DNA of 64,000 nucleotides, from IMG/VR virus record IMGVR_UViG_3300025450_000020, positions 18,186 through 82,185 of that record. The stretch is one strand, 5' to 3'. Below the pieces are notes generated by a model. It was not told the origin of the DNA and searched no databases. It worked only from the letters and a program-made list of their open reading frames with translations. Both the position numbers and the translations under genes were made by a program. This document shows positions 2-63,128 of the stretch, in pieces. This DNA comes from a virus. How positions within the stretch are numbered: the first letter of the stretch is position 1; every line of letters begins with the position of its first letter.

Positions 2-1084
2 AAAAGTTATTCTTCTGACTCGGTAAGCGAAAATAATGCAACTCTTTCGTATGCCCAAATGCAAGCAACCTTATGGAGCTATACAGGCAATCCAGCCATT
101 ACAAGTATTTTAATTACTTTATCAAGCGGTAACTTTGCCCAATACTCCACCTTCTCTCTCTACGCCCTAGCCGCAGTAGGCACTACTCCTACTAAAGCTC
201 CGAAGGCATCAGGTGGAGATATTGTTCAATATGACGGTACATATTGGTATCATGCATTTATTAATTCGGGAAGTTTTATTCCACAGATCCCGCTTTCTTG
301 TGATGTGCTAGTCGTTGCTGGTGGTGGTTCGGGTGGCGCTGGAACTGGTGGCGGTGGTGGAGCTGGTGGTTTGCGTTTATTAGCTAGCCAAGGTTTTGCA
401 CCAAATACTGCTTACACTTGCACGACTGGCGCTGGCGCTGCTTCTGTTACTGGAAGCGCACACGGTAATAATGGAACTAACTCCAGCCTTATTGGAGGTT
501 CTATTTCTATCAGCGCAACTGGTGGTGGCGGTGGAGCTGCCGAAAATACGAACAACGCTCAAACAGGTGGTTCTGGTGGTGGCGGAAGCTACAACGGTTA
601 CAACGGAGCTGCTGGTAACGCTGGTTCATATTCGCCAGTTGAAGGTTATGCAGGTGGTGTTGCTTCCGCAACCTACAACGGCTCTGGTGGTGGTGGAGCT
701 GGTGGAACTGGTTTTGCATCAACAACATCAGGCTCTACTGGAGTTGGTGGTGTGGGCGGTGTAGGTGCTGGCGGAACTTCATACACTAATTACGCAATTC
801 TTGATGCTATGGGCGCGGCTACTACAACTGGCGTACTTTCGTCATCTCACTATTACTATGCAGGTGGCGGCGGTGGTGGTGGACAGTATTCAACTTCGCC
901 ATATACAGGACAAGGTGGAGCTGGCGGAACTGGTGGTGGCGGAACTGGCGGTGCTTACAATCCAGCAACCGCAGGAACCTCAGCACTTGCCAATACAGGC
1001 GGTGGCGGTGGCGGAGGCGGAACAAACTCAAACACCTCTGGAGCTGGCGGTTCAGGTGTAGTTATAGTACGCTATCTAGCTTAA
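2..1084 (+). CDS. Glycine-rich virion adhesin/fibre protein (C-type N-domain plus Gly-rich domain), 5'-truncated by window
   Basis: Frame is open from nt 2 (KSYSSDSVSENNAT, matching KAYSADSVTENGAT in paralogue 6799-8181). Gly-rich domain runs LVVAGGGSGG...GGSGVVIVRY. Confidence 0.75.
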   Translation, partial: KSYSSDSVSENNATLSYAQMQATLWSYTGNPAITSILITLSSGNFAQYSTFSLYALAAVGTTPTKAPKASGGDIVQYDGTYWYHAFINSGSFIPQIPLSCDVLVVAGGGSGGAGTGGGGGAGGLRLLASQGFAPNTAYTCTTGAGAASVTGSAHGNNGTNSSLIGGSISISATGGGGGAAENTNNAQTGGSGGGGSYNGYNGAAGNAGSYSPVEGYAGGVASATYNGSGGGGAGGTGFASTTSGSTGVGGVGGVGAGGTSYTNYAILDAMGAATTTGVLSSSHYYYAGGGGGGGQYSTSPYTGQGGAGGTGGGGTGGAYNPATAGTSALANTGGGGGGGGTNSNTSGAGGSGVVIVRYLA

Positions 1085-1111
1085 ATTAAAATATGATTAT
1101 ATTAATTAACT

Positions 1112-1120
1112 TGATATAAT
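1112..1120 (+). promoter_or_regulatory. Extended -10 promoter (TGATATAAT)
   Basis: TGnTATAAT in an AT-rich intergenic gap, followed by SD GGGAG and ATG 1136. Confidence 0.6.
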
Positions 1121-1135
1121 TAGCAGGGAGATAAA

Positions 1136-2149
1136 ATGACAAAATCTAGAGATTTATCTAATTCGGGACGTAGCATTGGAACAACATCCAATCGTCCCGC
1201 TTCTCCCTTTGTTGGACAAGAGTATTATGATACAACTTTAGGTCAATTATTAAATTATACAGTTCAAGGAACTTGGGTTGCAGTTGGAACAGCTGCACCA
1301 AATGCAGTATCTGTAAACTATCTTGTAGTAGCAGGTGGCGGCGGTGGTGGTTACAACCGTGGTGGCGGAGGTGGAGCTGGTGGATTACGTTCAACCGTTA
1401 CTGCAACTGGAGGCGGAGGCTCTTTAGAATCAGCACTTCCTTTAACTATTGGCACTTCATACACAGTAACTGTAGGCGCAGGAGGTGCTGGAGCAATTCA
1501 AGTTTCTCCATATACACCAGCGCAAAATGGTTCTAACTCTGTATTAGCAACAGTTACTTCCACTGGAGGCGGCGCTGCTGGTGCTGGCACTACTGCTGGT
1601 TCTAACGGAGGCTCTGGAGGTGGCGGCGGTGGTAATGGTGCCCCAGGTGCTTCAACAGCATACGTTTCTGCTGGAACAGGAACAAACAATCAAGGTTATG
1701 CTGGAGGACAAGGCGCAAACTCTGGTGGCGGTGGCGGTGGTGCAGGTCAAGCAGGATATTCGGTATCTAGTCAAACAACAACAGTGGGCGCTAATGGAGG
1801 TAGCGGTGTAGCAGTTTCAATTACTGGTTCATCTGTAACCTATGCGGGCGGCGGAGCGGGCGGCGGAGAATCTGGCTCACCAACAGGTGGTTCAGGCGGC
1901 GGCGGAAATGGCGGAAACAATAACGGTACTAATTCTTATGGATCTGCTGGAACTGCTAATTTGGGTGGCGGTGGCGGCGGTGGTTCTGATGGTCAATCAA
2001 CAAACTATTATGGTGGAAATGGCGGCTCTGGAGTTGTTATTATTTCTGCACCTCAAGCTGCTGCATCTACAACAGGTTCACCAACTGTAACAACATCAGG
2101 TTCTAATACGATTTACAAATTCACTGGTTCAGGGAGTATAACCTTCTAA
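1136..2149 (+). CDS. Glycine-rich virion protein
   Basis: N-terminal RPASPFVGQEYYDTT motif, then Gly-rich domain (YLVVAGGGGGG...GGSGVVII). Confidence 0.75.
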   Translation: MTKSRDLSNSGRSIGTTSNRPASPFVGQEYYDTTLGQLLNYTVQGTWVAVGTAAPNAVSVNYLVVAGGGGGGYNRGGGGGAGGLRSTVTATGGGGSLESALPLTIGTSYTVTVGAGGAGAIQVSPYTPAQNGSNSVLATVTSTGGGAAGAGTTAGSNGGSGGGGGGNGAPGASTAYVSAGTGTNNQGYAGGQGANSGGGGGGAGQAGYSVSSQTTTVGANGGSGVAVSITGSSVTYAGGGAGGGESGSPTGGSGGGGNGGNNNGTNSYGSAGTANLGGGGGGGSDGQSTNYYGGNGGSGVVIISAPQAAASTTGSPTVTTSGSNTIYKFTGSGSITF

Positions 2150-3189
2150 TGTCTAACGCTAGAAATATTGCTAATAATGGGGGAGTTGGATCAACATCTA
2201 ACCGTCCCGCCAATCCATATGTAGGACAAGAATATTACGATACCACAGTTAATGCAATTGTGGTTTGGAATGGAACTACTTGGGGCGGATTATTTCCAGC
2301 TTTTTATCCAGTCGTTACTGGCGGCACTATTTTTTCAGATGCAACTTATTATTACCGTGCTTTTACTTCTACTGGTACTTTATCTGTTTCTAACGTAGCT
2401 TTAGCTGCCGATGTTTTAGTAATTGCTGGTGGCGCAAGCGGTGGTTATAACATAAATCAAGCCAATGGTGGTGGCGGAGCTGGTGGTCTTAGATTATTAG
2501 CTTCTCAATCATTGCCTGTTAACACTTATACTTGTTCAGTTGGTGCGGGTGGCGCTTCGGTTTCATCAAGTCCATCTATGGGTAATAACGGAACTAACTC
2601 ATACATTAGTGCAAGCGGTTTCTCTACTATTACCGCTTCAGGTGGTGGCGCAGGTGGTTACGGAACTACCAACAACGGTTTATCTGGTGGTTCAGGCGGT
2701 GGTGCTGGTTCTGGTGGACACAGTGGCGGAGCAGGAAACACTGGTGGTTATACCCCCGTTGAAGGATATGCGGGCGGTACATCTTCAGCAGTTCAAGCTG
2801 GTGGTGGTGGTGGTGGCGCAGGCGGAGTTGGCGGCAACGGTGGTTCAGGCGGCGGTGCATACGGCGGCAACGGTGGCGTAGGTGCTGGAGGAACTGGATA
2901 CACAAATTACGCAATTCTTGACACTATAGGTGCTGCAACATCAACAGGCGTTCTTTCATCTTCGCATTATTATTATGCAGGTGGTGGCGGAGCTTCTGCT
3001 GATAGCGGTTCAACTGGTGGACTTGGCGGTGGCGGCAATGGCCCTAGCGGTTCTGTTACATCAGCAAACGCAGGTTTAACTAATACAGGCGGCGGCGGTT
3101 CTGGTGCTTTTGGTAATTCAACACCATCGGGTGCTGGCGGTTCTGGTTTAATTGTTGTTCGTTACACTAGAACTCAGGTAGGTGGATAA
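2149..3189 (+). CDS. Glycine-rich virion protein
   Basis: Same N-terminal RPANPYVGQEYYDTT motif as the previous gene, Gly-rich domain, TAATG coupling. Confidence 0.75.
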   Translation: MSNARNIANNGGVGSTSNRPANPYVGQEYYDTTVNAIVVWNGTTWGGLFPAFYPVVTGGTIFSDATYYYRAFTSTGTLSVSNVALAADVLVIAGGASGGYNINQANGGGGAGGLRLLASQSLPVNTYTCSVGAGGASVSSSPSMGNNGTNSYISASGFSTITASGGGAGGYGTTNNGLSGGSGGGAGSGGHSGGAGNTGGYTPVEGYAGGTSSAVQAGGGGGGAGGVGGNGGSGGGAYGGNGGVGAGGTGYTNYAILDTIGAATSTGVLSSSHYYYAGGGGASADSGSTGGLGGGGNGPSGSVTSANAGLTNTGGGGSGAFGNSTPSGAGGSGLIVVRYTRTQVGG

Positions 3190-3617
3190 TGGCTATTAAT
3201 TTTCCTTCATCTCCAACAGTAAACCAACAATATACGTATAATGGTTTAACTTGGTATTGGACTGGACAAGTTTGGAAATCTCTAGGAACTGTTCAGGGCG
3301 TACAAGGCACACAGGGTGTGCAAGGTTTTGGATATGCCCAACTTCAAGGTGTTCAAGGACTTCAGGGTTCTGCAGGATATGTTGGAACAAATGGAGCACA
3401 GGGTACACAAGGTATATCAGGATTAACTGGTAATTATCAATCAATTCAGGGATCGGGAATTTCTGTTACAGCCCGCCCAGTTATAAACTTTTTAAATGCA
3501 ACAGTAACTGATGATTCTGCCAATAACCGAACAAATGTTACAATTGCAACAGCGATAGATGGCGGAAGTTCCAATAGTACATATGGAGGAGCCATAAGCG
3601 GAGGTAATGCAATATAA
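3189..3617 (+). CDS. Collagen-like fibre protein
   Basis: MAINFPSSP...TWYWTG N-terminus and G-X-Q triplets (QGVQGTQGVQG). Confidence 0.65.
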   Translation: MAINFPSSPTVNQQYTYNGLTWYWTGQVWKSLGTVQGVQGTQGVQGFGYAQLQGVQGLQGSAGYVGTNGAQGTQGISGLTGNYQSIQGSGISVTARPVINFLNATVTDDSANNRTNVTIATAIDGGSSNSTYGGAISGGNAI

Positions 3618-4441: not shown

Positions 4442-4472
4442 TGAATTTAAATTTTAGAAAAGGAGATAAATA

Positions 4473-4838
4473 ATGGCAACAGCATACAAGGTATTAGGCA
4501 TGACAGGTGCGGCTGGAGCAACAGGAAATGGTGCCCAGCAATTAGCAGCAGCAAATACAAACTATAATCTTTATACAGTACCTTCAGCAACATCTACTGT
4601 AGTTTCAACTATAACTGTTTGTAATCAAGCTTCAACTGCAGCTACATTTAATATATTGGTAAGACCTGCAGGTGCAACTGCAGATACCCGCCACTATATT
4701 GCATATGGTACACCAATTGCGGGGAATGACACAATAGCCCTCACATTAGGTATTACCCTAGCTACAACAGATGTAATTACAATCAATTCATCAACAACTA
4801 CTCTTTCATTTGCAGCATTTGGATCAGAGCTATCATAA
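4473..4838 (+). CDS. Small beta-rich virion/adaptor protein
   Basis: SD AAGGAG; LYTVPSATSTVVSTITVCN...SFAAFGSE pattern typical of phage fibre-associated proteins. Confidence 0.55.
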   Translation: MATAYKVLGMTGAAGATGNGAQQLAAANTNYNLYTVPSATSTVVSTITVCNQASTAATFNILVRPAGATADTRHYIAYGTPIAGNDTIALTLGITLATTDVITINSSTTTLSFAAFGSELS

Positions 4839-4849
4839 AGGAGTAATTA

Positions 4850-8181: not shown

Positions 8182-8222
8182 TATAATTAAAATGGTAAAA
8201 TTAAAGGGCGGGAGGTAGAAAA

Positions 8223-8864: not shown

Positions 8865-10246
8865 TGGCTGGTCAAAGCGCATCCACATATAATTTTATTG
8901 CTAACCAAACTTTGGCTTCAGCAACTGCCTCAGTAACATTTAGCAATATTCCGCAGAACTTTACTGACCTAGTGCTTGTAGCAGCACACAATGAAAACGC
9001 TAGTGGCGCTGGTGGATATATGCAATTTAACGGCGATACGGCAACTAACTACAGCTCTAACTATGGGTATGGCAGTGGAAGCGGTACTGGACAAGGACGA
9101 GGTAATAGCCAAACTTTTTTCAGCTTTTCTTACGATACTAATACAACTTATCTAGCGCCTCAAATTTTGCACATAATGAATTACTCAAGCAGCAATATGT
9201 ACAAAACAATTATAGAAACTCAAATGAGTAGTGCGTCTACTCAGACAAGTCCCCAAACAGCGTTATGGAGAGGCTTGAACCCAATAACTAGCATATACAT
9301 GTATGCTGGTACAGGTAGCTTTATTGCTGGTTCTTCTTTTACTCTTTATGGAATTAAAGCCGCAGATGTAGCGTCCATTATTCCTACAAAAGCTATTGGT
9401 GGAGACCTTATTACCTCTGATGGTACTTATACTTATCATGCTTTTAAATCAACAGGTAATTTTATTCCCGCACAAGCACTTACTTGCGATATTTTGATGA
9501 TTGCTGGTGGTGGCGGTGGCGGACCAACTTATGTTGGTGGCGGCGGCGGTGCTGGTGGATTGCGCCTTTTAACTTCTCAAAGTTTTTCTACTAGCCAAAC
9601 AGTTACTATCGGTGCTGGGGGTACTGGCGGAAGTGGTTATGGCAACCAAGGAACAAATGGTGGAACTTCATCACTAGGTTCTATTTCTGCATCTGGTGGT
9701 GGCGCAGGTTCTACAAATGATGGAACTAATCCTAAAGCGGCGGCATCTGGAGGTTCTGGCGGTGGAGCAAACTACACAACTTTAACTGCTGGTTCAGGTA
9801 ACGCTGGCTCATATTCTCCAGTTGAAGGTTACGCTGGAGGTACTGCTTTTAACGGTGGCGCTTATGGCTCAGGTGGCGGTGGCGGCGCGGGTGGAGCAGG
9901 TAATGCTGGAACAACATCTATCGGCGGTGCTGGTGGTGTAGGTGCTGGCGGAACTGGTTATACAAATTATGCAATTTTGAATGCAATGGGTACAGCAACA
10001 TCTACTGGAGTTTTATCATCTGGTAATTATTATTATGCAGGCGGTGGTGGCGGTTCTTCTTATGGCGCTGGCGGTGGTTCAACTTCATCTGGTGGTTTAG
10101 GTGGAGGTGGAACTGGCTCAACAGGTCAAGGAGGAAATGCCACATCTAATACTGGTGGCGGTGGCGGTGGTTCAGAGCGAGCAAGTGGCGCTTTGGCGGG
10201 CGGCAATGGCGGTTCAGGAATTGTTATTGTGAGGTATTTATCCTAA
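8864..10246 (+). CDS. Fibre cassette subunit B plus Gly-rich domain, copy 2
   Basis: SVTFSNIPQNFTDLVL...HIMNYS...YKT...FTLYGI, then Gly-rich domain; TAATG coupling. Confidence 0.7.
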   Translation: MAGQSASTYNFIANQTLASATASVTFSNIPQNFTDLVLVAAHNENASGAGGYMQFNGDTATNYSSNYGYGSGSGTGQGRGNSQTFFSFSYDTNTTYLAPQILHIMNYSSSNMYKTIIETQMSSASTQTSPQTALWRGLNPITSIYMYAGTGSFIAGSSFTLYGIKAADVASIIPTKAIGGDLITSDGTYTYHAFKSTGNFIPAQALTCDILMIAGGGGGGPTYVGGGGGAGGLRLLTSQSFSTSQTVTIGAGGTGGSGYGNQGTNGGTSSLGSISASGGGAGSTNDGTNPKAAASGGSGGGANYTTLTAGSGNAGSYSPVEGYAGGTAFNGGAYGSGGGGGAGGAGNAGTTSIGGAGGVGAGGTGYTNYAILNAMGTATSTGVLSSGNYYYAGGGGGSSYGAGGGSTSSGGLGGGGTGSTGQGGNATSNTGGGGGGSERASGALAGGNGGSGIVIVRYLS

Positions 10247-11610
10247 TGGCTAAAACATACTCTGCTATTCAGACTATTACACTGTCTGCAACTACATCGT
10301 CTGTTACTTTTGCAAATATCCCTCAAAACTATACAGATTTACGACTTCTTGTTAGCGCACGTACTACAGACTCAAATACTGTTAGCTCTACCGCTATGCG
10401 TGTAGGTAACGGTAACGTTGATGCTGGAGCAAACTACACGCAAAAAGACGTACAGTATGCAAACGGCTCTGCTTCTTCTGGTAATACTAGCGGAACCAAC
10501 CAATGGTATTTTGTTCACGATGCGGCAAGTAACACATCGGGAATATTTGGAAATGCAGAAATTTACATACCTAGCTACACCAATGGAATACAAAAATCTG
10601 CTCAATTAAACAGTGTAACTGAGGACAACTCTAGCACCAGCATACAAAGCAGAACAACCTCTGCATTATGGACTGGAACGTCTGCAATTAATATTATTAC
10701 ACTTACTGGAAGCGGTACCAGTTATGCGGCTGGTTCTACTTTTACTCTTTACGGTATTGGTCAAGGAGCTAAAGCTACTGGTGGAACTGTAGTGGGTGCT
10801 GGTAACTATATTTATCATACCTTTACTTCTTCTGGAACATTTACACCAACAGAGTATATTAAGAACGCAGAAGTTCTTGTTATCGCTGGTGGTGGTGGCG
10901 GAGGTTCTCAGGATGGAGCTGGAGCTGGAGCTGGTGGAGTGCTATACGCCCCACCAAATTACCCGTTTAATGCAGGAACAAACTACGGAATTACAGTAGG
11001 AGCTGGTGGCGCTGGAGGTACTTCTAGCGGAGCTGGTTCACAAGGAAACAACTCAGTTGTAAATGCGCTTGTATCCATTGGTGGCGGTGGTGGTGCTGGA
11101 AGAAACACTGTAGGAACTACAGGAGGTTCTGGCGCTGGTGGAAATACAAACGGTGGCTCTCAAGGACCTACGTCTGCACTACAAGCTAGCGTTGGTGGAG
11201 GAATAGGTTATGGTAATGCGGGTGGAGCTAGTGGTAACTCTGGTAGCGGCGCTTCTGGTGGTGGCGGAGGTGCTGGTGCAGCAGGTGGCGCTGGAGTAGG
11301 AGCCACACCTAAAGGTGGAGACGGCGGAATTGGATTAACAACCTGGTCAAGCTGGGGCTACGCCACGGGAACAGGACAAAACATTGGTGGAACTTACTAC
11401 TACGCAGGTGGCGGTGGCGGCGGGGCCGAGCCTACTGGCTCTCAAACTCAAGGTGTTGGTGGTTATGGTGGCGGAGGAACAGCAACTGCCTCTGGCACGG
11501 GTGGAAGTGGGACATCCAATACTGGCGGTGGAGGCGGAGCAGCCTCTGCAAGTGCGGCTGGTGGAGCTGGTGGTTCTGGTTTAGTAATCATTCGTTACCC
11601 AGTTAACTAA
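10246..11610 (+). CDS. Fibre cassette subunit C plus Gly-rich domain, copy 2
   Basis: SVTFANIPQNYTDLRLLVSAR...FGNAEIYIP...SVTEDN, then Gly-rich domain; TAATG coupling. Confidence 0.7.
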   Translation: MAKTYSAIQTITLSATTSSVTFANIPQNYTDLRLLVSARTTDSNTVSSTAMRVGNGNVDAGANYTQKDVQYANGSASSGNTSGTNQWYFVHDAASNTSGIFGNAEIYIPSYTNGIQKSAQLNSVTEDNSSTSIQSRTTSALWTGTSAINIITLTGSGTSYAAGSTFTLYGIGQGAKATGGTVVGAGNYIYHTFTSSGTFTPTEYIKNAEVLVIAGGGGGGSQDGAGAGAGGVLYAPPNYPFNAGTNYGITVGAGGAGGTSSGAGSQGNNSVVNALVSIGGGGGAGRNTVGTTGGSGAGGNTNGGSQGPTSALQASVGGGIGYGNAGGASGNSGSGASGGGGGAGAAGGAGVGATPKGGDGGIGLTTWSSWGYATGTGQNIGGTYYYAGGGGGGAEPTGSQTQGVGGYGGGGTATASGTGGSGTSNTGGGGGAASASAAGGAGGSGLVIIRYPVN

Positions 11611-11666: not shown

Positions 11667-11900
11667 ATGTCAGATACACCAACAAAGATTATTGTTGATT
11701 GCTCTACAGGAGAACAAAAGATTGTTCCTTTGACTCCCGCCGAGATTGCAGCTAACGATCAAGCAGCAGCAGCGGCAGCTACAGCAGCTCAAGAAAAGGC
11801 AGCAGCAGATGCTGCGGCAGCAGCAGCAAAAGCAAGTGCGGTAGCAAAGCTATCTTCACTTGGACTTACAGCAGAAGAAATTGCAGCATTAACTGCATAA
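11667..11900 (+). CDS. Small Ala-rich helical protein, putative fibre assembly chaperone
   Basis: Strong SD; beta N-terminus plus Ala-rich helix ending KLSSLGLTAEEIAAL; position after the fibre array. Confidence 0.5.
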   Translation: MSDTPTKIIVDCSTGEQKIVPLTPAEIAANDQAAAAAATAAQEKAAADAAAAAAKASAVAKLSSLGLTAEEIAALTA

Positions 11901-12612: not shown

Positions 12613-12637
12613 TCCCGCCTTTTTAGGCGGGACTTTC
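12613..12637 (+). terminator. Intrinsic terminator
   Basis: TCCCGCCT-TTTT-AGGCGGGA hairpin plus CTTTT. Confidence 0.7.
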
Positions 12638-21154: not shown

Positions 21155-21193
21155 AAGGCGGGGAGTTACTTCGGTAGCTCCCTTAGCCATTTA
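21155..21193 (+). terminator. Hairpin/terminator after capsid gene
   Basis: GGGAGTTAC-TTCG-GTAGCTCCC stem with cUUCGg tetraloop. Confidence 0.65.
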
Positions 21194-25249: not shown

Positions 25250-25290
25250 GAATTTCAGGCCCCGTCAGAAATGGCGGGGTTCTGAATTTG
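25250..25290 (+). terminator. Terminator after tail tube gene
   Basis: AATTTCAGGCCCCGTCA / TGGCGGGGTTCTGAATT stem. Confidence 0.65.
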
Positions 25291-37940: not shown

Positions 37941-37969
37941 AATGATATAATTGGGTGTACTGGAGAAAA

Positions 37970-46217: not shown

Positions 46218-46546
46218 CAAAGGATGAAGCAAAGTTAGCCTACGGATTAGTTGGGCTCTACTGTGCTTTATACAAAGAGCATTATAAGAAGCCTGCAGTA
46301 GTAAATAAGTACAGAGAAAAGTGGGCTATGCAAGACGTCATTGATAGTGTAGGATATGACAGAGCAAAGGTCCTCCTAGAGTATTACTTTAAGATTACAA
46401 AGAGTGGTCATCCACTAACTTGGTTCTTTTATAATTTTGAAAAGCTTGACCTTACATTGCAACAGACTGAAGAAGATAAGTCCCGCAGGGAATTGATTAG
46501 AGCTAGAACCAAGGATATGGTTCAGGAAAGAGACAATGAATACTGA
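46214..46546 (+). CDS. Hypothetical protein (possible helicase loader)
   Basis: Helical ORF overlapping the helicase start; function inferred from position only. Confidence 0.5.
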   Translation: MTKDEAKLAYGLVGLYCALYKEHYKKPAVVNKYREKWAMQDVIDSVGYDRAKVLLEYYFKITKSGHPLTWFFYNFEKLDLTLQQTEEDKSRRELIRARTKDMVQERDNEY

Positions 46547-53293: not shown

Positions 53294-53548
53294 ATGGCTC
53301 AGTCCTACATACTTAAAGGTACGGAGAACGAGTTCCTGTTAGTAATTAGAGCAGAGGACGAAAAAGCAATCTATAACATAATAGATTTATTAGTGACCAG
53401 TCGTAATGAACAGATTAAAGAGTTAGCAATAGAGTTAGAGAAGAGTTTACATGATAACGGAAGAGATTCTAGCAAAGCTAGACCCAAAAACAAGAGCAAG
53501 ACTACAACTAGCAACAACAGTAAGCGTAGAAAAACAAAAGACGCCTAG
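53294..53548 (+). CDS. Hypothetical protein (overlaps recA start)
   Basis: TATAAT 8 nt upstream; 3' 98 nt overlap recA. Confidence 0.45.
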   Translation: MAQSYILKGTENEFLLVIRAEDEKAIYNIIDLLVTSRNEQIKELAIELEKSLHDNGRDSSKARPKNKSKTTTSNNSKRRKTKDA

Positions 53549-54449
53549 CATTGGCTTAACAATGGGACTCAAAGGCGGATTAGGCTTTGGTCGCCAAATC
53601 CTTATCTGGGGAAATAAGTCTGCTGGTAAATCTTCATTCTGCTTACAAATGATTGGTCAAGCTCAAAAAGAAGGCAAGACTTGTGCTTGGATTGATGCAG
53701 AAGCATCGTATGACCCAGCTTGGGCTGCCAGATTAGGCGTAGATTCAGAAAAGCTAATTTATTCACCCGCTAAATCTATCAATGACATGGTAGATGTTGC
53801 ACAGCAACTTATGGAGGCGGGAGTAGATATTATTGTTGTAGATTCTATCTCAGCATTACTTCCTGCCATTTACTTTGAGAAAGATAGTTCCGATCTAAAG
53901 AAATTGGAAGATACCAAGCAGATTGGTGCTGAAGCAAAGGATATGACACATGCAGTCAAAATGCTTAACTATGCAAACAAAAATACGCTACTCGTTCTTA
54001 TCTCTCAACAGAGAAACCAGTTTGGATCTATGCATGCAAGCCATATCCCAACAGGAGGAATGGCTGTTAAGTTTTTCTCCAGCACCGTTATCAAGCTCTG
54101 GGCATCAGAAGCTGATGCAAATGCTATTAAGTCTGGAATCCAAGTTGGTGACAAAATTATTGAACAAAAGGTGGGAAGGCCAGTCAACTGGATTATTGAC
54201 TACAACAAAACTGGACCAATGGGGTTATCGGGTCAGTATGACTTCTATTTTCAAGGCGATAAAGTTGGAGTTGATGCTGTCGGAGAAATCCTAGATACTG
54301 CAGAAATGATGGGTATTGTGCAAAAAGGCGGTGCTTGGTACACTGTTAATGAAGAAAGATTCCAGGGTCGTGCAAAGGCTGTAGAGTACCTTAGAGACAA
54401 CCCTAAAGTAGCGGATAAGATTAAGGAAGAGATATATGACAAGTCTTGA
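53451..54449 (+). CDS. recA: RecA/UvsX-like recombinase
   Basis: GNKSAGKS Walker A, WIDAE, VVDSISAL, PTGG..KFFSS, GAWY, QGRAK. Confidence 0.92.
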   Translation: MITEEILAKLDPKTRARLQLATTVSVEKQKTPSIGLTMGLKGGLGFGRQILIWGNKSAGKSSFCLQMIGQAQKEGKTCAWIDAEASYDPAWAARLGVDSEKLIYSPAKSINDMVDVAQQLMEAGVDIIVVDSISALLPAIYFEKDSSDLKKLEDTKQIGAEAKDMTHAVKMLNYANKNTLLVLISQQRNQFGSMHASHIPTGGMAVKFFSSTVIKLWASEADANAIKSGIQVGDKIIEQKVGRPVNWIIDYNKTGPMGLSGQYDFYFQGDKVGVDAVGEILDTAEMMGIVQKGGAWYTVNEERFQGRAKAVEYLRDNPKVADKIKEEIYDKS

Positions 54450-55116: not shown

Positions 55117-55439
55117 CAGAAAAACCAGTTATTGAATTAATCAGCGAACTAACAGAGTTCAATGATATGAAGACATATATGAGTGACCCAGACCTTGACT
55201 ATGCTCTTGACTTGATTATTAAGCTTATTGCTAAGCCTGATGTGCCTTCATCCAAAATTCCCGACCTTATTGTTAAAATGCAGGCTTTGTCTGCTAAGTT
55301 TGCAATGATGTCACGCTACTACACCACCTTTGAAAAAGGCGGGGAGAATTCTAAGAAGAAGAACGTATATTACACTGCTGAAGAAGCAATAGACAAGCTT
55401 GTTGCAGCATTGAAATATTCAATGAAAGGTAATTATTAG
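55113..55439 (+). CDS. Hypothetical helical protein
   Basis: Coupled ORF in the recombination block. Confidence 0.6.
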   Translation: MTEKPVIELISELTEFNDMKTYMSDPDLDYALDLIIKLIAKPDVPSSKIPDLIVKMQALSAKFAMMSRYYTTFEKGGENSKKKNVYYTAEEAIDKLVAALKYSMKGNY

Positions 55440-55468: not shown

Positions 55469-56047
55469 ATGAAACCACACAACAAGCTTCCAGAACCAGA
55501 AATTGGTCAAATTTTTGAAGGTTGGACTGTTATAGAAATTGGTCAGTGGCAGTCAAAAACCCCTAACTCGTTCTATAAGTCAGAGCATTATTGTGGAAAT
55601 ACAAGAAAATTTACAGCATCTCAATTATGGTCTAAAAAATTTAAGCCTTGTAAAAAATGTGAAGCAAGGGTTGCATATAGAAAAAACCATAAAGATATAA
55701 TTTTAAACAATATTTATAGGCAATATAAATGGAGTGCCAAAAAAAGAGGTCATTCATTTAATTTATCTAAAGAGGAATTTAATAAAATTGTTTTTATGAA
55801 TTGTTCGTATTGCGGTGATGAGCCAAATCAGAAAAGAAGCATAACTGAAAAATTAAGAAGTGTTCACCATAAAGATGAATATATTTTAATTAATGGAATT
55901 GATAGAATTGATAATTCTATAGGTTATGAATTTAAAAATTGTACCCCATGTTGTTTTGTTTGTAATAAAGCTAAAAGCACCATGACTATAAAAGAATGGA
56001 ATGATATGGTTTTAAAATGGAGTAGAATGGCAAAGATAAATGGGTAG
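55469..56047 (+). CDS. Free-standing HNH-type homing endonuclease
   Basis: AKKRG..FNLS, CSYCG, NGIDRIDNSIGY..NCTPCC..CNKAK; markedly AT-rich. Confidence 0.8.
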   Translation: MKPHNKLPEPEIGQIFEGWTVIEIGQWQSKTPNSFYKSEHYCGNTRKFTASQLWSKKFKPCKKCEARVAYRKNHKDIILNNIYRQYKWSAKKRGHSFNLSKEEFNKIVFMNCSYCGDEPNQKRSITEKLRSVHHKDEYILINGIDRIDNSIGYEFKNCTPCCFVCNKAKSTMTIKEWNDMVLKWSRMAKING

Positions 56048-56825
56048 AGAGCTAATAGCAAACCTAAAGTTTCAAAAGATGGTTGTGCCAGATGGTTTTG
56101 ATCCAATTAAATTTGCAGAAATGTATGAGGAGGCAGTATTAAGTGAAAAAAGACCAAATGAATTTACCCAAAAGAAAACTTTTGCTCCTAGTTCTGTTGG
56201 CTATGGTAACGGTAACTGTCCTAGATATTGGTTCATTGCTTTTACTGGTGCTGAGTTTGAAAATGAAACCGATGCTATGGGCGTCTCTAATATGGATAAT
56301 GGTACGTATGTCCATGATCGGATACAGAAAAACTTTGCTAAAACAGCAGTCTTCAAAGCAAATGAAGTTGAAATTACCCACGATGATCCGCCAATTAGAG
56401 GATTTGCAGACACAATTATAGAATGGAATGGCAAAGAAGTAATTGGTGAAGTAAAATCTGCCAAGCAAGAAATTTTTGATATCAGACAAGCAGAGATGCA
56501 AGGTCTTCCATATCATAAAGTTCAGCTTTTGCATTACATGAAAATCCGTGGGGCAGAGCAAGGTTTCTTTTTTTATGAGAATAAAAATGACAACAGTTTT
56601 CTTGTTATACCAATTAATATGGATGAAAAGAATACAGACTTGATTAATGGAGTTTGGGATTGGATGCGTAAAGTATATGCTGCCTATGAAGCTGGAACTT
56701 TGCCAGAAAGAACATTTACTAAATCGCAGTGGGCATGTAAGGGATGCCCTGTCAAGAAAGTTTGCTGGGCAGATAAAAAAGATTTAGGTGAAGTTTATAT
56801 AGAACCTTTGGTGCTTGAAAAATGA
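56040..56825 (+). CDS. Cas4-like PD-(D/E)XK exonuclease
   Basis: CPR, GTYVHDRIQ, GFAD..EVKS, QLLHY, CKGCPVKKVC (Fe-S cysteines). Confidence 0.85.
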   Translation: MGRELIANLKFQKMVVPDGFDPIKFAEMYEEAVLSEKRPNEFTQKKTFAPSSVGYGNGNCPRYWFIAFTGAEFENETDAMGVSNMDNGTYVHDRIQKNFAKTAVFKANEVEITHDDPPIRGFADTIIEWNGKEVIGEVKSAKQEIFDIRQAEMQGLPYHKVQLLHYMKIRGAEQGFFFYENKNDNSFLVIPINMDEKNTDLINGVWDWMRKVYAAYEAGTLPERTFTKSQWACKGCPVKKVCWADKKDLGEVYIEPLVLEK

Positions 56826-57109: not shown

Positions 57110-57653
57110 ATTAGTTCGTCCAACTGCACATAAAGTTTTGGGGATAGATGCCAGCACAAATAGCATCGCCTTTTGCTTAATGTCTGAAAAGAAACCTGTT
57201 AAATGGGGAGAAATCACATTTGAAGGTTCTGATGTCTATGAAAGAATACTTGACGCAAAACGTAAGATGAAAGCTTTTAAAAACGAACTTGACACTGATT
57301 TTGTTGTAATAGAAGCTGCCATTTCTGTAAGATCAGTTGCAACGGGAATGAAGATGGCATACGTATTCGGTGCTATAATGGGAGAGTTACTTAGTGATAA
57401 TGTTCAGGTTGTTGAAGTTCATCCCATAACCTGGCAATCTTACTTAGGCAACAAAAATTTTACAAAAGCTGAAAAGCAGGCGGTTAAAGATGAATTTCCA
57501 GGAAAGTCTGAAAACTGGTACAAGGCAAAAATCAGAGACATTAGAAAGTCTAGGACGATTGACTTTGCGAGAACATTGGGCGTTGACACTGAAAATGATA
57601 ATGTCGCTGATGCGGCGGGGATAGCATGGTATGCAGTTAATGAAGTTGTGTGA
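57096..57653 (+). CDS. RuvC-like resolvase
   Basis: VLGIDAST, VVIE, P.TWQ, DNVADAAGI. Confidence 0.8.
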   Translation: MSLAKLVRPTAHKVLGIDASTNSIAFCLMSEKKPVKWGEITFEGSDVYERILDAKRKMKAFKNELDTDFVVIEAAISVRSVATGMKMAYVFGAIMGELLSDNVQVVEVHPITWQSYLGNKNFTKAEKQAVKDEFPGKSENWYKAKIRDIRKSRTIDFARTLGVDTENDNVADAAGIAWYAVNEVV

Positions 57654-58489: not shown

Positions 58490-59139
58490 TAGGATTACTA
58501 CCAGCTTCGGGTAGTGCTTCAAGACTTGGCGGGATTCCAAAGTTTTGTTTACCATTAACAGATAATCAAAACATGCTTCAATGGCATGTGGAGCAAATGT
58601 TAAAGGTATGCGATATTGTTAAAATATCTACAAGAAAAACATGGCTTCCAATTGTAAACCAAATGGACCTTCCACCCGAAGCTGTTGTTTATGAGATTGA
58701 GCCATCAACAATGTCTGATGCATTGTTAAAGATGATGGTAAACCCAGAATCTAAATATATAATTGGTATGCCTGATACCTATATGCCAGGATCAGATGGA
58801 GAATTCTATAGACAGTTAGCTGAATCAAAAGCAGATGTCACTTTGGCAGCTTTTGATTGTCACAAAGATTTAATGGGGCGGGTAGGTCAAATTAAGTTTA
58901 ATGAATTTGGTAATGTTATTGATGCTCTTGACAAGGATAAAGATTGTGAGTATCCTTATATGTGGGGAGCAATGTCAATACAAAATGTTTATATTGACGA
59001 AGAATTGCCAAATCCAGGTGTGCAGATAATGGACTGGGTTAATGAAGGAAAAGATGTAAAGGCGGTAGTCGCCAAAGGTAAGTACCTAGACATTGGTACT
59101 GTAAACGGTCTTAAAATGTTATATAGAGAGGAACTTTAG
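58477..59139 (+). CDS. Sugar-phosphate nucleotidyltransferase (RmlA/GalU-like fold)
   Basis: IGLLPASGSASRLGGIPKF.LP, GMPD, YLDIGT. Confidence 0.8.
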   Translation: MAAIIGLLPASGSASRLGGIPKFCLPLTDNQNMLQWHVEQMLKVCDIVKISTRKTWLPIVNQMDLPPEAVVYEIEPSTMSDALLKMMVNPESKYIIGMPDTYMPGSDGEFYRQLAESKADVTLAAFDCHKDLMGRVGQIKFNEFGNVIDALDKDKDCEYPYMWGAMSIQNVYIDEELPNPGVQIMDWVNEGKDVKAVVAKGKYLDIGTVNGLKMLYREEL

Positions 59140-59459: not shown

Positions 59460-59642
59460 ATGCCAAAATATGACTACACTTGTATTGAGTGTGATAGAAC
59501 AGAGGAAATAACTAGATCATTTTCTGATCCAGAAGTAATCCCGCCATGTCCAAGCTGTGGTTATAATATGACAAGAGTTTATACCCCTGCGGGGATTCAG
59601 TTCAAAGGATCAGGTTTCTATAAAACCGATAATGGCAGATAA
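59460..59642 (+). CDS. FmdB-family zinc-ribbon protein
   Basis: MPKYDYTCIEC...CPSCG...GIQFKGSGFYKTD. Confidence 0.85.
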   Translation: MPKYDYTCIECDRTEEITRSFSDPEVIPPCPSCGYNMTRVYTPAGIQFKGSGFYKTDNGR

Positions 59643-60162
59643 CGAGTTAGAAGTAGCTGGCAAATTTGACCAGATGAATAAAGTTGTTGAGGAGTTGCTA
59701 AAAGGTAGCACTCCTGCTTCAATTGCACGTACACTTGATTTGACTCGTGTTCAAGTTGATAGTCATATTCAAACTTGGAAAGAACTTGTTCAAGATAACA
59801 GTGCTATCAAAGCCCGTGCTAGAGAAGCTTTGGCGGGAGCAGATGAGCATTACAATATGCTTATTAAAGAAGCATGGCGTACAGTAGAGCAAGCAGATAT
59901 GCAAGATGCATTAAATGTAAAAGCCCAATCTCTTAAACTTATTGCTGATATTGAAGCTAAAAGAATTGATATGTTAAACAAGGCGGGAGTCTTGGAGAAC
60001 AATGATATGGCTGATCAAATTCTAGAATCAGAAAGAAAGCAAGAAGTCCTTATCAGTATTCTTAGAGATGTAACTTCATCTTGTGAACATTGCAAGTGGG
60101 AAGTATCAAGAAGATTGTCAGAAGTCACTGGGCAAGTAGAGGCAGTTGTAATAAGTGACTGA
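59632..60162 (+). CDS. Putative terminase small subunit (HTH)
   Basis: N-terminal HTH (KGSTPASIARTLDLTRVQV), helical body, overlaps terL start. Confidence 0.55.
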   Translation: MADNELEVAGKFDQMNKVVEELLKGSTPASIARTLDLTRVQVDSHIQTWKELVQDNSAIKARAREALAGADEHYNMLIKEAWRTVEQADMQDALNVKAQSLKLIADIEAKRIDMLNKAGVLENNDMADQILESERKQEVLISILRDVTSSCEHCKWEVSRRLSEVTGQVEAVVISD

Positions 60163-61996
60163 TTTTAATGTATTTTTAGATGCATTACAAGGTGATGAAT
60201 TTGATGAAACTCCAGCAACTTTGGAGCAATTTGTAACAGATAAAAAGTATTTGGGCCTTCCGCCATTGTCTGAATTACAATATACAATGATTAAAGCATC
60301 CACTCAAATCTACAAACGTGAAACATTACACAATATATATGGTGAAGTTGAAGGCGAAAAGATTTGGAAACAAACATGTAATGAAGTAATCCTGCAGCTG
60401 GGCAAGGGTTCTGGAAAAGACTATACATCTACTATTGCTTGTGCATATATGGTGCATTTGCTTTTATGTCTTGCAGATCCCGCCAGATATTTTGGTAAGC
60501 CACCAGGCGATGCTATTGATATTATTAACATTGCTATTAACGCTATTCAGGCTAACCGAGTTTTCTTTAAAGGATTTAATCAGCGTATTGAAAAGTCACC
60601 GTGGTTTCAGGGAAGATATGTCGCTAAAGCAAACATGGTTGAGTTTGATAAATCAGTTACAGTTCACTCAGGTCACTCAGAGCGTGAAGCATGGGAAGGT
60701 TATAACGTTCTTGTAGTTATTCTTGATGAGATCTCAGGATTTGAATTGCAATCAACTTCAGGTCATGAGCAAGCTAAAACTGCATCATCAATTTATAAGA
60801 TGTATCGTGCATCTGTCAACTCTCGTTTTCCAGACTTTGGAAAAGTAATTCTACTTTCATTCCCACGTTTTAAAAATGACTATATTCAGCAAAGATACAA
60901 CGAAGTTGTGGCGGAAAAGGAAACTGTTATTCGTCATAATAAATTTAAAGTAGATCCCGATCTTCCTGATGGAACTGATGGTAATGAATTTGAAATTGAA
61001 TGGGAAGAAGACCATATTGTTTCTTATAAAGTACCTAGGGTATATGCATTAAAGAGACCAACTTGGGATATTAACCCGACCCGTAAGATTGAAGATTTTA
61101 CAATTGACTTTTATACAGATCCAACAGATGCATTGTCTCGTTTTGCATGTATGCCACCAGACGCAACGGATGCATTCTTTAAAAATCGCTTAGTAATTGA
61201 AAAAGCATTTAGCAATCCTAAATTAAATGTTGATTCATATGGAAGATTTGATGATGATTTTGTTCCAAAAGAAGATGTTAAGTATTTTATGCATGTTGAC
61301 TTGGCACAAAAACATGACCATTGTGCAGTAGCATTAGCCCACGTTGACGGCTGGGTAACCATGAAGATTGGTGAAAATTTTAAGCAAGCAGCACCTAGAA
61401 TTGTAGTTGATGCAGTCAGATATTGGACACCAACAGCTTCTAAATCAGTTGATTTTACAGAAGTAAAAGATTATATTACAAGTGTGCGGGATAAAGGATT
61501 TAATCTTAAACTTGTTACATTTGACCGCTGGAACTCACACGATATGATGCAACAACTTGGTGTTCATGGTATTAAAACAGAAATTTTATCTGTAGCAAAA
61601 AAACATTATGAAGATATGTCTCTTACTTTAACTGAAGAGAGATTGCATGGTCCACATATTCAATTGTTGATTGATGAATTGCTTCAGCTACGTATTATGA
61701 AGGACAAGGTAGACCACCCTAGAAAAGGATCTAAAGACCTCTCAGACGCCGTTTGTGGAGCTGTATTCAATGCTATATCCTTGACACCACCAGATCAAGA
61801 TAAAGAAGTAGAAATCTATACTTATTCTGGTGTATTTGCGGGGGAATTGGCACAATTAAAGGCGGAATCGGATGCAAGAATGAAGAATACAATCCGTATG
61901 CCTGAAAGAAAAACAATGCCACAAGATATTAGAGATTTCTTTGATGATGAAGACGGGGAATACAAAGATATAGTTGACAACTTCAGAATACTATAG
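60155..61996 (+). CDS. terL: Terminase large subunit
   Basis: GKGSGKD Walker A, VILDE Walker B, HVDLAQKHD, FDRWNS, DHP.KGSKDLSDA nuclease motifs. Confidence 0.9.
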   Translation: MTDFNVFLDALQGDEFDETPATLEQFVTDKKYLGLPPLSELQYTMIKASTQIYKRETLHNIYGEVEGEKIWKQTCNEVILQLGKGSGKDYTSTIACAYMVHLLLCLADPARYFGKPPGDAIDIINIAINAIQANRVFFKGFNQRIEKSPWFQGRYVAKANMVEFDKSVTVHSGHSEREAWEGYNVLVVILDEISGFELQSTSGHEQAKTASSIYKMYRASVNSRFPDFGKVILLSFPRFKNDYIQQRYNEVVAEKETVIRHNKFKVDPDLPDGTDGNEFEIEWEEDHIVSYKVPRVYALKRPTWDINPTRKIEDFTIDFYTDPTDALSRFACMPPDATDAFFKNRLVIEKAFSNPKLNVDSYGRFDDDFVPKEDVKYFMHVDLAQKHDHCAVALAHVDGWVTMKIGENFKQAAPRIVVDAVRYWTPTASKSVDFTEVKDYITSVRDKGFNLKLVTFDRWNSHDMMQQLGVHGIKTEILSVAKKHYEDMSLTLTEERLHGPHIQLLIDELLQLRIMKDKVDHPRKGSKDLSDAVCGAVFNAISLTPPDQDKEVEIYTYSGVFAGELAQLKAESDARMKNTIRMPERKTMPQDIRDFFDDEDGEYKDIVDNFRIL

Positions 61997-62318: not shown

Positions 62319-62326
62319 GGTTACAA

Positions 62327-62400
62327 TGGTCTGTAGCACAATTGGCAGTTGCACTCCGCTGTTAACGGAGATGTTGTAAGTTCGAGTCTTACCAGACCAG
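62327..62400 (+). tRNA. tRNA-Asn(GTT)
   Basis: Acceptor TGGTCTG/CAGACCA, anticodon arm CTCCG-CT GTT AA-CGGAG, TTCGAGT loop. Confidence 0.9.
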
Positions 62401-62440
62401 CTAGATAAATTATTAACCAAACAAACATAGGAGTATAATT

Positions 62441-62689
62441 ATGAATATGATGGCGGAAAAGACAGAAGAAATTTCAGAACAAAAAGAATATATCTTAAAA
62501 GCCATTGATCGTTGTGATGCATGTGCAGCACAAGCTTATGTTTTGGTTAAAGGTGTCACAGGAGAATTAATGTTTTGTGGTCATCATTATCAAAAAAATG
62601 AAAAAGCATTAAAAGAATTTGCTTATGAAATTGTTGATGAGCGAGATAGGCTAATAGAAAATAAACTCATAGGTCAAGCTCACGTATAA
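62441..62689 (+). CDS. Small Cys/His zinc-binding protein
   Basis: DRCDACAAQAYV...LMFCGHH, a motif recalled from actinobacteria and actinophages. Confidence 0.65.
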   Translation: MNMMAEKTEEISEQKEYILKAIDRCDACAAQAYVLVKGVTGELMFCGHHYQKNEKALKEFAYEIVDERDRLIENKLIGQAHV

Positions 62690-62726
62690 TTTGTTATGAT
62701 GCAAAAATTATGATATAATATATATC

Positions 62727-63128
62727 ATGGAATGCGGAACTTATTCAGGATATATAACCCACGGCAAAAACAAGGAAAAACCTTGCAACGAGTGCAGGCT
62801 GGCAGCAAATAAGTATAGAAGAGAAAAAAGAAAATCGGATAATGAAAAGCTTGGGTATGACCCAAGAAGGTTTAGTAGGCATCATATAACAAAAGAGTAT
62901 TATGACAATATGATGTCAAAGCATGACGGAAAATGTTGGATTTGCAAAAAAGCAGAAGCTGTACATATAGACCATGACCATAATTGTTGTGAAGGCGGGT
63001 GGTCTTGTGGAAAATGTATAAGGGGTGTATTATGCAGTAATTGTAATACAGCAATAGGTCTTTTAAAAGACGATATAAATCTTTTAAAAGAAACAATTAA
63101 ATATTTAAAACAACTGACAGTATCCTAG
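62727..63128 (+). CDS. Endonuclease VII-like (His-Me finger) homing endonuclease
   Basis: CWIC...HIDHDHNCC...CIRGVLCSNCNTAIG; N-terminal CGTYSGY..H..PC..C. Confidence 0.85.
   Translation: MECGTYSGYITHGKNKEKPCNECRLAANKYRREKRKSDNEKLGYDPRRFSRHHITKEYYDNMMSKHDGKCWICKKAEAVHIDHDHNCCEGGWSCGKCIRGVLCSNCNTAIGLLKDDINLLKETIKYLKQLTVS

Follow-up and report, generated by a model that had tools for sequence, protein, structure and literature searches.

What keeps an AT-rich phage genome supplied with dozens of copies of one G+C-rich hexamer, and what might read them? The question is raised by a 64,000-nucleotide window of viral DNA (39.5% G+C, nearly all genes on the plus strand) that spans bases 18186-82185 of an 82,185-bp IMG/VR phage contig, IMGVR_UViG_3300025450_000020, with an estimated completeness of 77%. 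GGCGGG, or CCCGCC where it lies on the other strand, had been described there from the letters alone as a dispersed cis-signal that acts at the level of DNA rather than protein. We found that GGCGGG is a true genome-wide DNA-level word and no by-product of coding; codon-preserving nulls, the use of several frames and both strands, the presence of sites in intergenic DNA and the behavior of relatives all lend the original prediction strong support. All coordinates below are window coordinates.

A recount of the window returned 36 GGCGGG and 15 CCCGCC, the same numbers at the same positions as predicted (Table 1), and the 82-kb genome holds 49 and 24. The core, put at about 90 copies, came to 98 (64 GCGGG and 34 CCCGC). 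Base composition accounts for few of these: an order-0 model expects 5.1 GGCGGG and 2.7 CCCGCC, in agreement with the rough figures of 5 and 3 given beforehand. Markov models of order 3 and 4 expect 38.8-41.1 GGCGGG, approximately the observed count, because GGYGG abounds (about 30 per kb) in the Gly-rich genes of the first 12 kb. As these genes inflate GGCGG, we dropped the plain Markov null and used two protein-preserving nulls instead, both of which hold about 8 intergenic sites fixed. Synonymous permutation within genes, which keeps the proteins and the codon usage of each gene, gave 8.8±2.1 expected GGCGGG and 4.9±0.9 expected CCCGCC (z = 13.0 and 11.3); past 12.3 kb, 33 GGCGGG were observed against 5.7 expected and 11 CCCGCC against 3.5. 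Dinucleotide-preserving permutation of third positions gave 12.0±2.7 and 7.1±1.4 (z = 9.0 and 5.9), so the excess remains under the codon-preserving shuffling that had been proposed as a check. Across the protein-preserving nulls, z reached 17.

In an unbiased ranking of the 4,096 hexamers, made over the 82-kb genome, CCCGCC came first and GGCGGG second, with mostly overlapping words below them. Using an analytic codon-aware expectation, computed from amino-acid context and codon frequencies with genes above 14% Gly left out, we observed 35 GGCGGG against 2.9 expected and 19 CCCGCC against 0.9. This corresponds to a hexamer enrichment of 12-20x, among the strongest signals measured; for T7, the same test found no word above about 2x.

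The best form of the word is D-GCGGG-R, built on the core GCGGG, and its commonest version is GGCGGGA. The base 5' of the core is G, then T, then A in order of preference and essentially never C, because CGCG is nearly fully avoided in this genome (5 copies against 124 expected). On the 3' side, the core is followed by A (about 55%) or G, and rarely by C. Within the window, the base after GGCGGG is A at 20 of 36 sites and G at 9, so the predicted preference for A or G holds at 29.

The enrichment arises through the choice of otherwise rare synonymous codons. The codons that the word takes up are indeed as scarce as had been claimed (GCG 7%, GGG 5%, CCC 7% and CGG 3%), and their use depends on context: Ala is encoded by GCG in 26% of cases ahead of Gly and in 5% elsewhere in this genome, and four relatives show 20% versus 3.3%, compared with 4% versus 6% in the basal relative G313. 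Among Pro-Ala pairs, 27% contain CCCGC. Dipeptide frequencies are unchanged, Ala-Gly making up about 0.6% of codons whether a genome is rich or poor in the motif, and the proteins have therefore not been bent toward the word. The Gly-rich genes, in which the motif had been called rare, hold a single GGCGGG among 111 GGC-GGN pairs. These fiber genes (59-11610, Pfam Gly_rich_2) also stand apart in their codon usage, with GGG at 2.5% and GCG ahead of Gly at 9% versus 26% elsewhere; recent import could explain this, as could selection against runs of G in poly-Gly tracts.

Sense sites in the window are read as GGC-GGG (13), xxG-GCG-GGx (17) or xGG-CGG-Gxx (2), and so lie mostly on Gly-Gly and x-Ala-Gly, while sites on the other strand fall on Pro-Ala, Pro/Ser/Thr-Arg and x-Pro-Pro. 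The motif thus occupies different reading frames, as predicted: two main frames in sense and three in antisense, in addition to intergenic DNA. The sense-only, single-frame enrichment expected of a codon-pair or translation effect was not seen for GGCGGG.

For plus-strand genes of this genome, the ratio of observed to expected counts (O/E) is 11.7x in sense and 16.2x in antisense; for pooled relatives it is 7.6x and 5.8x, and in the minus-strand genes of relatives it is about 9.5x in both orientations. Enrichment is consequently present whichever strand the gene lies on and whichever way the motif points, both here and in the pooled relatives (6-10x), and the 2:1 excess of plus-strand sites exists because coding gives GGCGGG more chances in the sense direction. 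Equal enrichment in both orientations excludes RNA-level, translational, transcription-coupled and strand-polar models, and we saw no orientation switch along the genome.

The even spread claimed for the motif stood in part. Sites are distributed uniformly along the genome and along genes, but their regularity does not go beyond random placement (coefficient of variation of the gaps 0.85 versus 0.98±0.11, a difference that is not significant). Spacers hold about twice the sites expected from their share of bases. No preferred pair spacing was found, save for a dozen short inverted pairs that form hairpins. The motif had also been placed in three terminator hairpins, and two of these do contain the word, one in both arms (12614-12632, TCCCGCC-TTTTTA-GGCGGGA) and one in its 3' arm (25259-25279, CCCCGTC-AGAAAT-GGCGGGG). 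At 21157, just the GGG of the site lies within the stem, and a simple terminator scan called none of the three.

To place the word in its lineage, we turned to the phage itself. It encodes structural proteins (portal, protease, major capsid protein, very large tail proteins and the block of Gly-rich fiber genes), replication proteins (a DnaB-like helicase, a DnaG-type primase, a single-strand DNA-binding protein and a DnaE-type polymerase) and recombination proteins (a RecA/UvsX-like recombinase, two resolvases and a Cas4/RecB-family exonuclease), along with glycosyltransferases of GT4 "conflict-system" and GT2 type, a class-II ribonucleotide reductase, a large terminase and a tRNA array. Its closest cultured phages are the Streptomyces cluster-BE phages (Stanwilliamsviridae), at 57% identity in DnaE and 53% in the capsid protein, and synteny with one of them, BillNye, is nearly gene for gene; a nucleotide search against cultured phages gave no match. 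Relatives in freshwater metagenomes number hundreds. A WhiB domain scores above the Pfam cut-off in 13 of 14 large relatives, among them all six with a completeness of 90% or more, which identifies the host as an actinobacterium, at the resolution of phylum; none was found in this 77%-complete contig.

The word is shared across this clade. GGCGGG is the top hexamer in pooled relatives at 83-93% and at 70-72% polymerase identity, and likewise in five near-complete genomes taken whole (G304, G305, G309, G310 and G311), where O/E is 5-12x for GGCGGG and 5-15x for CCCGCC. Along a polymerase tree rooted with BillNye, O/E for the core climbs from 0-1.7 among basal lineages to 2-3 and then to 3-6 in the clade of this phage, with a few low exceptions (for example, L110), and hexamer density in this lineage is about 0.4-0.9 copies per kb. 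In the basal relatives G312 and G313, GGCGGG is at expectation and the best strand-symmetric hexamer is a one-base variant, GGCGGA/TCCGCC (2.7-2.8x in sense, 4-5x in antisense); in BillNye (53% G+C), GGCGGG reaches 2.6x in sense and 1.3x in antisense. The specificity of the word appears to have drifted within the family, from GGCGGA in basal members to GGCGGGA in this clade.

Single sites come and go while copy number is kept. Of the site positions in DnaE, some recur in 10-24 of 38 sequences and many occur in just one. The original prediction had named as counter-evidence a lack of extra conservation at the synonymous positions that form the motif, and the DnaE gene does lack it: third positions within the motif match relatives at 0.28, versus 0.25 for the same rare codons elsewhere (n = 13), and at these sites relatives carry ordinary synonymous alternatives, 1-3 changes away. 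Since the clade has kept the enrichment as such, we take this to mean that sites turn over while selection acts on how many there are. The phage lineage shows selection on the copy number of a duplex-symmetric word, or a directional force equivalent to it.

A different excess marks the basal genomes. G312 (L219-L224) and G313 (L207-L212) show a sense-only excess of NCTGGA, and in G313 Ala ahead of Gly is encoded by GCT in 59% of cases. This CTGGA excess looks like a side effect of avoiding the Shine-Dalgarno-like AGGA.

Does the word also mark the host chromosome? Our sample of the host class, to which a mis-binned contig had led, comprised 301 Actinomycetia genomes, a tally that includes eight unpublished genomes on which no claim rests (G265, G009, G038, G032, G045, G034, G026 and G017). 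Across about 25 small genomes (1.0-1.7 Mb, a size typical of freshwater planktonic lineages), GGCGGGA was above its reversed control in none (ratios 0.45-1.27). For two complete genomes (1.38-1.39 Mb, 47% G+C), the codon-aware null over 200 kb each gave 0.54-0.89x for the hexamers and 0.7-0.95x for the core, and the word showed no strand skew in either despite a 2:1 gene-strand bias. Word density is 6-12x higher in the phage than in these host candidates, although the G+C content of the phage is lower. We infer that the reader belongs to the phage lineage and is not something that also marks the host chromosome.

Attempts to narrow the host further gave little. The capsid gene occurs in bins labeled cyanobacterium, Bacteroidia and Clavibacter, and the word is enriched in none of them; we rejected these labels as host evidence because they are mutually inconsistent, and the contigs are probably mis-binned phage. 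Two such bins hold near-complete genomes of the family, L162 (CAINGU010000031.1, "uncultured cyanobacterium", a 109,918-bp contig) and L163 (JBBALJ010000006.1, "Bacteroidia bacterium"). Searching the 301 Actinomycetia genomes with the class-II ribonucleotide reductase of the phage returned nothing at E 1e-30. One host-class genome, G251 (L180-L189), has GGCGGGA/TCCCGCC once in 200 kb, where codon context predicts about 11, while its sister-like genome G097 is at expectation (12 versus 12).

Likeliest to read the word is the zinc-finger DnaG-type primase that the phage itself encodes; a phage primase was among the three possibilities of the original prediction, together with a Chi-like signal and a DNA-binding or modifying protein, and we put it forward tentatively on the strength of its sequence. 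We favor it because every member of the family encodes it and because such enzymes are inherently sequence-specific; the phage protein has the zinc-binding domain and TOPRIM of a sequence-reading primase, and the Cys/His motif that binds zinc is conserved in the alignment. The primase would start lagging-strand primers at the template word 5'-YCCCGC(H)-3', yielding a stable, purine-initiated, G+C-rich primer, 5'-GCGGGR. By chance, a genome of 35-40% G+C would offer about one such word per 10-20 kb on each strand, too low a supply, so selection would have to create words, and they would be needed on both strands because replication would be bidirectional or recombination-driven. The genome has about 1 site per kb over both strands, which matches the scale of Okazaki fragments. 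Primases with related preferences are on record: a report on the Aquifex primase describes initiation on trinucleotides made of C and G only (PMC2532735), and one on plant Twinkle describes initiation on 5'-(G/C)GGA-3' (PMC5737085). A broader and more speculative version is that this freshwater actinophage family writes its own "start/self" word, with a replication or recombination enzyme, most simply the primase, co-evolving with a G+C-rich 6-7-mer as it moved from GGCGGA to GGCGGGA. If so, this would be the first phage enzyme whose template specificity visibly sculpts synonymous codon choice genome-wide.

Several observations weigh against the primase. Under the same null, the T7 primase words GGGTC, TGGTC and GTGTC are enriched just 1.2-1.7x, a difference that would be explained if T7's pentamers are easily met by chance. 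We know of no precedent for primase words enriched 10-20x, and three bases normally suffice for DnaG-type enzymes. An alignment of eight phage primases with that of BillNye revealed no residue pattern that splits motif-rich from motif-poor genomes, and G310 is motif-rich yet BillNye-like in its primase zinc domain. The near absence of the word from the 111 GGC-GGN pairs of the fiber genes is not what a simple per-site advantage predicts. With the host placed to phylum level only, the signal's absence from hosts must be taken as provisional. Finally, the symmetry would follow just as well from a protein that binds duplex DNA.

Such a protein, perhaps a small helix-turn-helix or zinc protein encoded by the phage, could organize, condense, mark or recruit DNA at copies of the word whose number is selected; we regard this as possible but doubtful. 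A reader of duplex DNA predicts the equal O/E that we observed for both orientations and gene strands, a co-evolving phage protein fits a trait that is lineage-specific, graded and drifting, and the lack of enrichment in host candidates and the roughly twofold surplus of sites in spacers point the same way. The replication module also holds many conserved small open reading frames (ORFs) of unknown function. Set against this, a gene presence/absence screen of the relatives found no accessory gene whose distribution follows the trait, homologues of the 97-aa ORF (47806-48099) occurring in motif-poor genomes as well; known nucleoid and occlusion proteins read palindromic or AT-rich sites; and no paired or phased sites were seen here. 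A Chi-like signal, which the original prediction had offered, would instead tame a helicase-nuclease, be it the AdnAB or RecBCD of the host or a phage apparatus centered on the RecB-family exonuclease, so that RecA-type recombination receives the spared phage ends and host DNA, poor in the motif, is broken down. Among causes of enrichment of short G-rich words in phage genomes, Chi is the best known (cf. PMC3784561), GCGG is common to the Chi words of AddAB (AGCGG in B. subtilis, GAAGCGG in S. aureus), and both the much higher density of the word in the phage than in host candidates and the phage's RecA-like, RecB-like, RuvC-like and resolvase genes would suit it. The version that relies on host Chi is weakened by the orientation independence of the word, with neither polarity nor a switch along the genome, by host candidates that are unenriched (0.5-0.9x) and unskewed, and by the phage's own recombination genes, phages so equipped being reportedly the class in which Chi is not expected. 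For the phage version, the nuclease is a stand-alone protein of 261 aa with no associated scanning helicase, and overall we consider a Chi-like role unlikely.

There may be no reader at all. A neutral, strand-symmetric drive, whether sequence-specific mismatch correction or context-biased polymerase error, could pile up GCGGG by converting neighboring words into it faster than it decays, and the strand symmetry of the enrichment, its gradual rise along the tree and the quick turnover of sites lacking positional conservation are all compatible with this, as are the unchanged dipeptide frequencies, which fit a weak force on silent sites. Such a drive is nonetheless improbable in our judgment. 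The transition neighbors of the word are undepleted (GTGGG 1.3x, GCAGG 0.9x, GCGAG 1.2x, GCGGA 1.4x and ACGGG 1.9x), and with these at 0.9-1.9x expectation we rejected a very-short-patch-type repair signature. A simple context-driven process should also flood the Gly-rich genes, whose GGC-GGN pairs are 111 one-step precursors, and the one GGCGGG among them speaks against it; many gains, moreover, require 2-3 changes, and a hexamer effect of 12-20x is, to our knowledge, far past known repair signatures. Searches for C5 and N4/N6 methyltransferases (PF00145 and PF01555) found none in this genome and none in four near-complete relatives, these two being the only methyltransferase families covered, with no search for Vsr. 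This result bears also on the idea that a DNA-modifying, defense or counter-defense enzyme targets the word, for example a base modification by the phage glycosyltransferase/kinase module or a decoy for a host nuclease. The GT4 and GT2 enzymes of the phage would be at hand for such a role, CCCGC is the type IIS site of FauI and CGGG the core of the Gabija GajA site, and restriction pressure has plainly left its mark on these genomes (CCGG 0 versus 124 expected, TCGA 7 versus 291). One would expect such targets to be avoided rather than 10-20x enriched, the bases around the word depart from the GajA pattern T-N3-CGGG-N2-A, and we know of no advantage that extra modification targets would bring, all of which makes this explanation very unlikely.

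Table 1. Sites of the word in the window, and phage genes that bear on its possible reader. For sites, + is GGCGGG on the plus strand and - is CCCGCC on the plus strand (motif on the minus strand).
Feature	Coordinates	Strand	Frame	Location or basis
GGCGGG	8207..8212	+		Intergenic, overlaps ribosome-binding region of gene starting 8223
GGCGGG	10195..10200	+	xxG-GCG-GGx	Gly-rich ORF 8864-10246
GGCGGG	11419..11424	+	GGC-GGG	Gly-rich ORF 10246-11610
GGCGGG	12626..12631	+		Intergenic, 3' arm of hairpin
GGCGGG	13131..13136	+	GGC-GGG	ORF 12669-15293
GGCGGG	13794..13799	+	GGC-GGG	ORF 12669-15293
GGCGGG	15042..15047	+	GGC-GGG	ORF 12669-15293
GGCGGG	18001..18006	+	xxG-GCG-GGx	ORF 17285-18148
GGCGGG	21157..21162	+		Intergenic, past major capsid gene
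GGCGGG	21922..21927	+	GGC-GGG	ORF 21652-22623
GGCGGG	22540..22545	+	GGC-GGG	ORF 21652-22623
GGCGGG	24222..24227	+	GGC-GGG	ORF 23775-24314
GGCGGG	25273..25278	+		Intergenic, 3' arm of hairpin, just upstream of promoter-like site 25288
GGCGGG	26077..26082	+	xxG-GCG-GGx	ORF 25973-31318 (tape-measure-sized)
GGCGGG	26506..26511	+	xxG-GCG-GGx	ORF 25973-31318
GGCGGG	27928..27933	+	xxG-GCG-GGx	ORF 25973-31318
GGCGGG	29341..29346	+	xxG-GCG-GGx	ORF 25973-31318
GGCGGG	31144..31149	+	xxG-GCG-GGx	ORF 25973-31318
GGCGGG	31335..31340	+	xxG-GCG-GGx	ORF 31318-31890
GGCGGG	33099..33104	+	GGC-GGG	ORF 31890-37940
GGCGGG	36392..36397	+	xxG-GCG-GGx	ORF 31890-37940
GGCGGG	38246..38251	+	GGC-GGG	ORF 37955-38668
GGCGGG	38782..38787	+	xxG-GCG-GGx	ORF 38681-39550
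GGCGGG	43380..43385	+	xxG-GCG-GGx	ORF 43036-43446
GGCGGG	45669..45674	+	GGC-GGG	ORF 45282-45797
GGCGGG	48765..48770	+	xxG-GCG-GGx	Primase gene
GGCGGG	48881..48886	+	xGG-CGG-Gxx	Primase gene
GGCGGG	52395..52400	+	xxG-GCG-GGx	DnaE polymerase gene
GGCGGG	53816..53821	+	xxG-GCG-GGx	RecA/UvsX-like gene
GGCGGG	55338..55343	+	GGC-GGG	ORF 55113-55439
GGCGGG	57614..57619	+	xxG-GCG-GGx	RuvC-like gene 57096-57653
GGCGGG	58528..58533	+	GGC-GGG	ORF 58477-59139
GGCGGG	58877..58882	+	xGG-CGG-Gxx	ORF 58477-59139
GGCGGG	59832..59837	+	xxG-GCG-GGx	ORF 59632-60162 (just upstream of large terminase gene)
GGCGGG	59982..59987	+	xxG-GCG-GGx	ORF 59632-60162
GGCGGG	62994..62999	+	GGC-GGG	Endonuclease VII-like ORF 62727-63128
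CCCGCC	2206..2211	-	CCC-GCC	ORF 2149-3189
CCCGCC	3472..3477	-	xCC-CGC-Cxx	ORF 3189-3617
CCCGCC	4687..4692	-	xCC-CGC-Cxx	ORF 4473-4838
CCCGCC	11736..11741	-		Outside ORFs of at least 100 aa
CCCGCC	12614..12619	-		Intergenic, 5' hairpin arm paired with site 12626
CCCGCC	13094..13099	-	xxC-CCG-CCx	ORF 12669-15293
CCCGCC	14895..14900	-	CCC-GCC	ORF 12669-15293
CCCGCC	31699..31704	-	CCC-GCC	ORF 31318-31890
CCCGCC	38126..38131	-	CCC-GCC	ORF 37955-38668
CCCGCC	40405..40410	-	CCC-GCC	ORF 39565-40449
CCCGCC	44221..44226	-	xCC-CGC-Cxx	Metallophosphoesterase gene
CCCGCC	47558..47563	-	xxC-CCG-CCx	DnaB-like helicase gene
CCCGCC	59540..59545	-		Intergenic
CCCGCC	60479..60484	-	CCC-GCC	Large terminase gene
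CCCGCC	63219..63224	-		Inside tRNA-Gln (63195-63266)
DnaG-type primase, N-terminal zinc-binding motif; putative reader of the word	48100..49059	+		PHROG phrog_47, E 2.5e-61; CxCPFH...CxNxxC in alignment
DnaB-like replicative helicase, primase partner (context only)	46536..47762	+		phrog_19, E 5.7e-72
Cas4/RecB-family exonuclease, candidate for a phage Chi-like system	56040..56825	+		PF01930, phrog_1706
RecA/UvsX-like recombinase (context: own recombination set)	53451..54449	+		phrog_97, E 5.9e-52

Around these features the genome offers further observations. Helicase and primase genes flank the conserved 97-aa ORF at 47806-48099 (phrog_17515, function unknown); its identity is 92-94% with G304 and G305 and about 45% with basal relatives, and BillNye has no annotated gene at this position. 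The presence/absence screen had raised it as a reader, and we rejected it on the tblastn homologues in motif-poor genomes. The endonuclease VII-like ORF at 62727-63128 (also 62441-62689) matches, over its N-terminal 38 residues, the C-terminal end of WhiB-like regulators (phrog_12112 and phrog_22267), and may mark a whiB remnant beside the tRNA array with a homing endonuclease fused to it or inserted next to it. Four endonuclease VII/HNH-type genes, two of them adjacent, occur in the 82-kb genome (L001 3109-3970; window 55469-56047 and 62727-63128), which suggests active homing-endonuclease traffic in the phage family.

Other words are conspicuously missing. Compared with base-composition expectation, the window and genome avoid the palindromes CCGG (0, about 124 expected), CGCG (5, 124 expected) and TCGA (7, 291 expected), and lack ATCGAT and CTTAAG altogether (26 expected of each). 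ATCGAT is missing from G304, G305, G309 and G310 as well, whereas G311 instead has no hexamer containing AGCT; this loss of palindromes is probably restriction avoidance that differs by lineage. BillNye (L165, 12000-61999) has zero CTGAAG/CTTCAG, CAGCTG, CTGCAG, GTCGAC, GAGCTC and GATC-containing hexamers, with 18-28 of each expected, and among the words enriched symmetrically on its two strands CTCAAG/CTTGAG ranks highest (about 2.5x).

The carrier of the word is a very abundant, uncultured lake phage family of Actinobacteria, and its motif-rich, motif-poor and variant-motif (GGCGGA) lineages form a natural experiment for finding the reader. In metagenomes, the presence of this phage clade could be recognized by the word, and the result is a caution that phage synonymous sites can carry strong DNA-level constraint. 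Literature on the word, on actinobacterial Chi, on Stanwilliamsviridae and on freshwater actinophages yielded no description of the signal. It matches no described class, being neither polar, palindromic, avoided nor common to the host candidates.

How, then, does it compare with known dispersed words? Like Chi, it is short, G-rich, non-palindromic, dispersed, strongly over-represented and accommodated in genes through synonymous codons, and GGCGGG shares GCGG with the Chi words of Firmicutes. Chi, however, is polar, skewed and over-represented in the host chromosome, whereas this word is equal in both orientations and not over-represented in the candidate hosts tested, and the phage carries its own recombination genes, with a stand-alone RecB/Cas4-family nuclease as the only one of its kind encoded. 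Primase words (GGGTC, TGGTC and GTGTC for T7 gp4, trinucleotides for DnaG) offer a likeness in the zinc-finger DnaG-type enzyme, the purine-initiated G+C-rich primer that the word would give, the need for words on both strands and the near-Okazaki spacing, but those known are 3-5 bases long and are not known as enriched, T7's reaching 1.2-1.7x. HIP1 (GCGATCGC), the highly iterated palindrome of cyanobacteria and some cyanophages, is also G+C-rich, present at about one copy per kb in coding regions in any frame, a lineage trait and unclear in function. It differs in being palindromic, cellular and associated with a methyltransferase, while the phage word is asymmetric and confined to a phage lineage in which PF00145 and PF01555 are absent. 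The DNA uptake and uptake signal sequences (DUS/USS) of Neisseria and Pasteurellaceae are likewise self-marking, enriched in genes in either orientation and sometimes arranged as inverted-pair hairpins past genes, as at 12614/12626 here; their length is 9-12 bases, and the uptake machinery of competent bacteria reads them, a process with no known counterpart in a lytic phage. The words of FtsK and SpoIIIE (the FtsK-orienting polar sequences, KOPS, and SpoIIIE recognition sequences, SRS) are short, G-rich, asymmetric and high in copy number, as this word is, but strongly polar toward dif, a polarity that the phage word lacks. For restriction targets such as the FauI site CCCGC, avoidance is expected, and the word is enriched 12-20x. 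Although it lacks the defining properties of Chi, KOPS, HIP1, DUS and restriction targets, the word belongs to the same general kind of dispersed, over-represented genomic word, and of these, Chi, DUS and KOPS each led to DNA-handling machinery.

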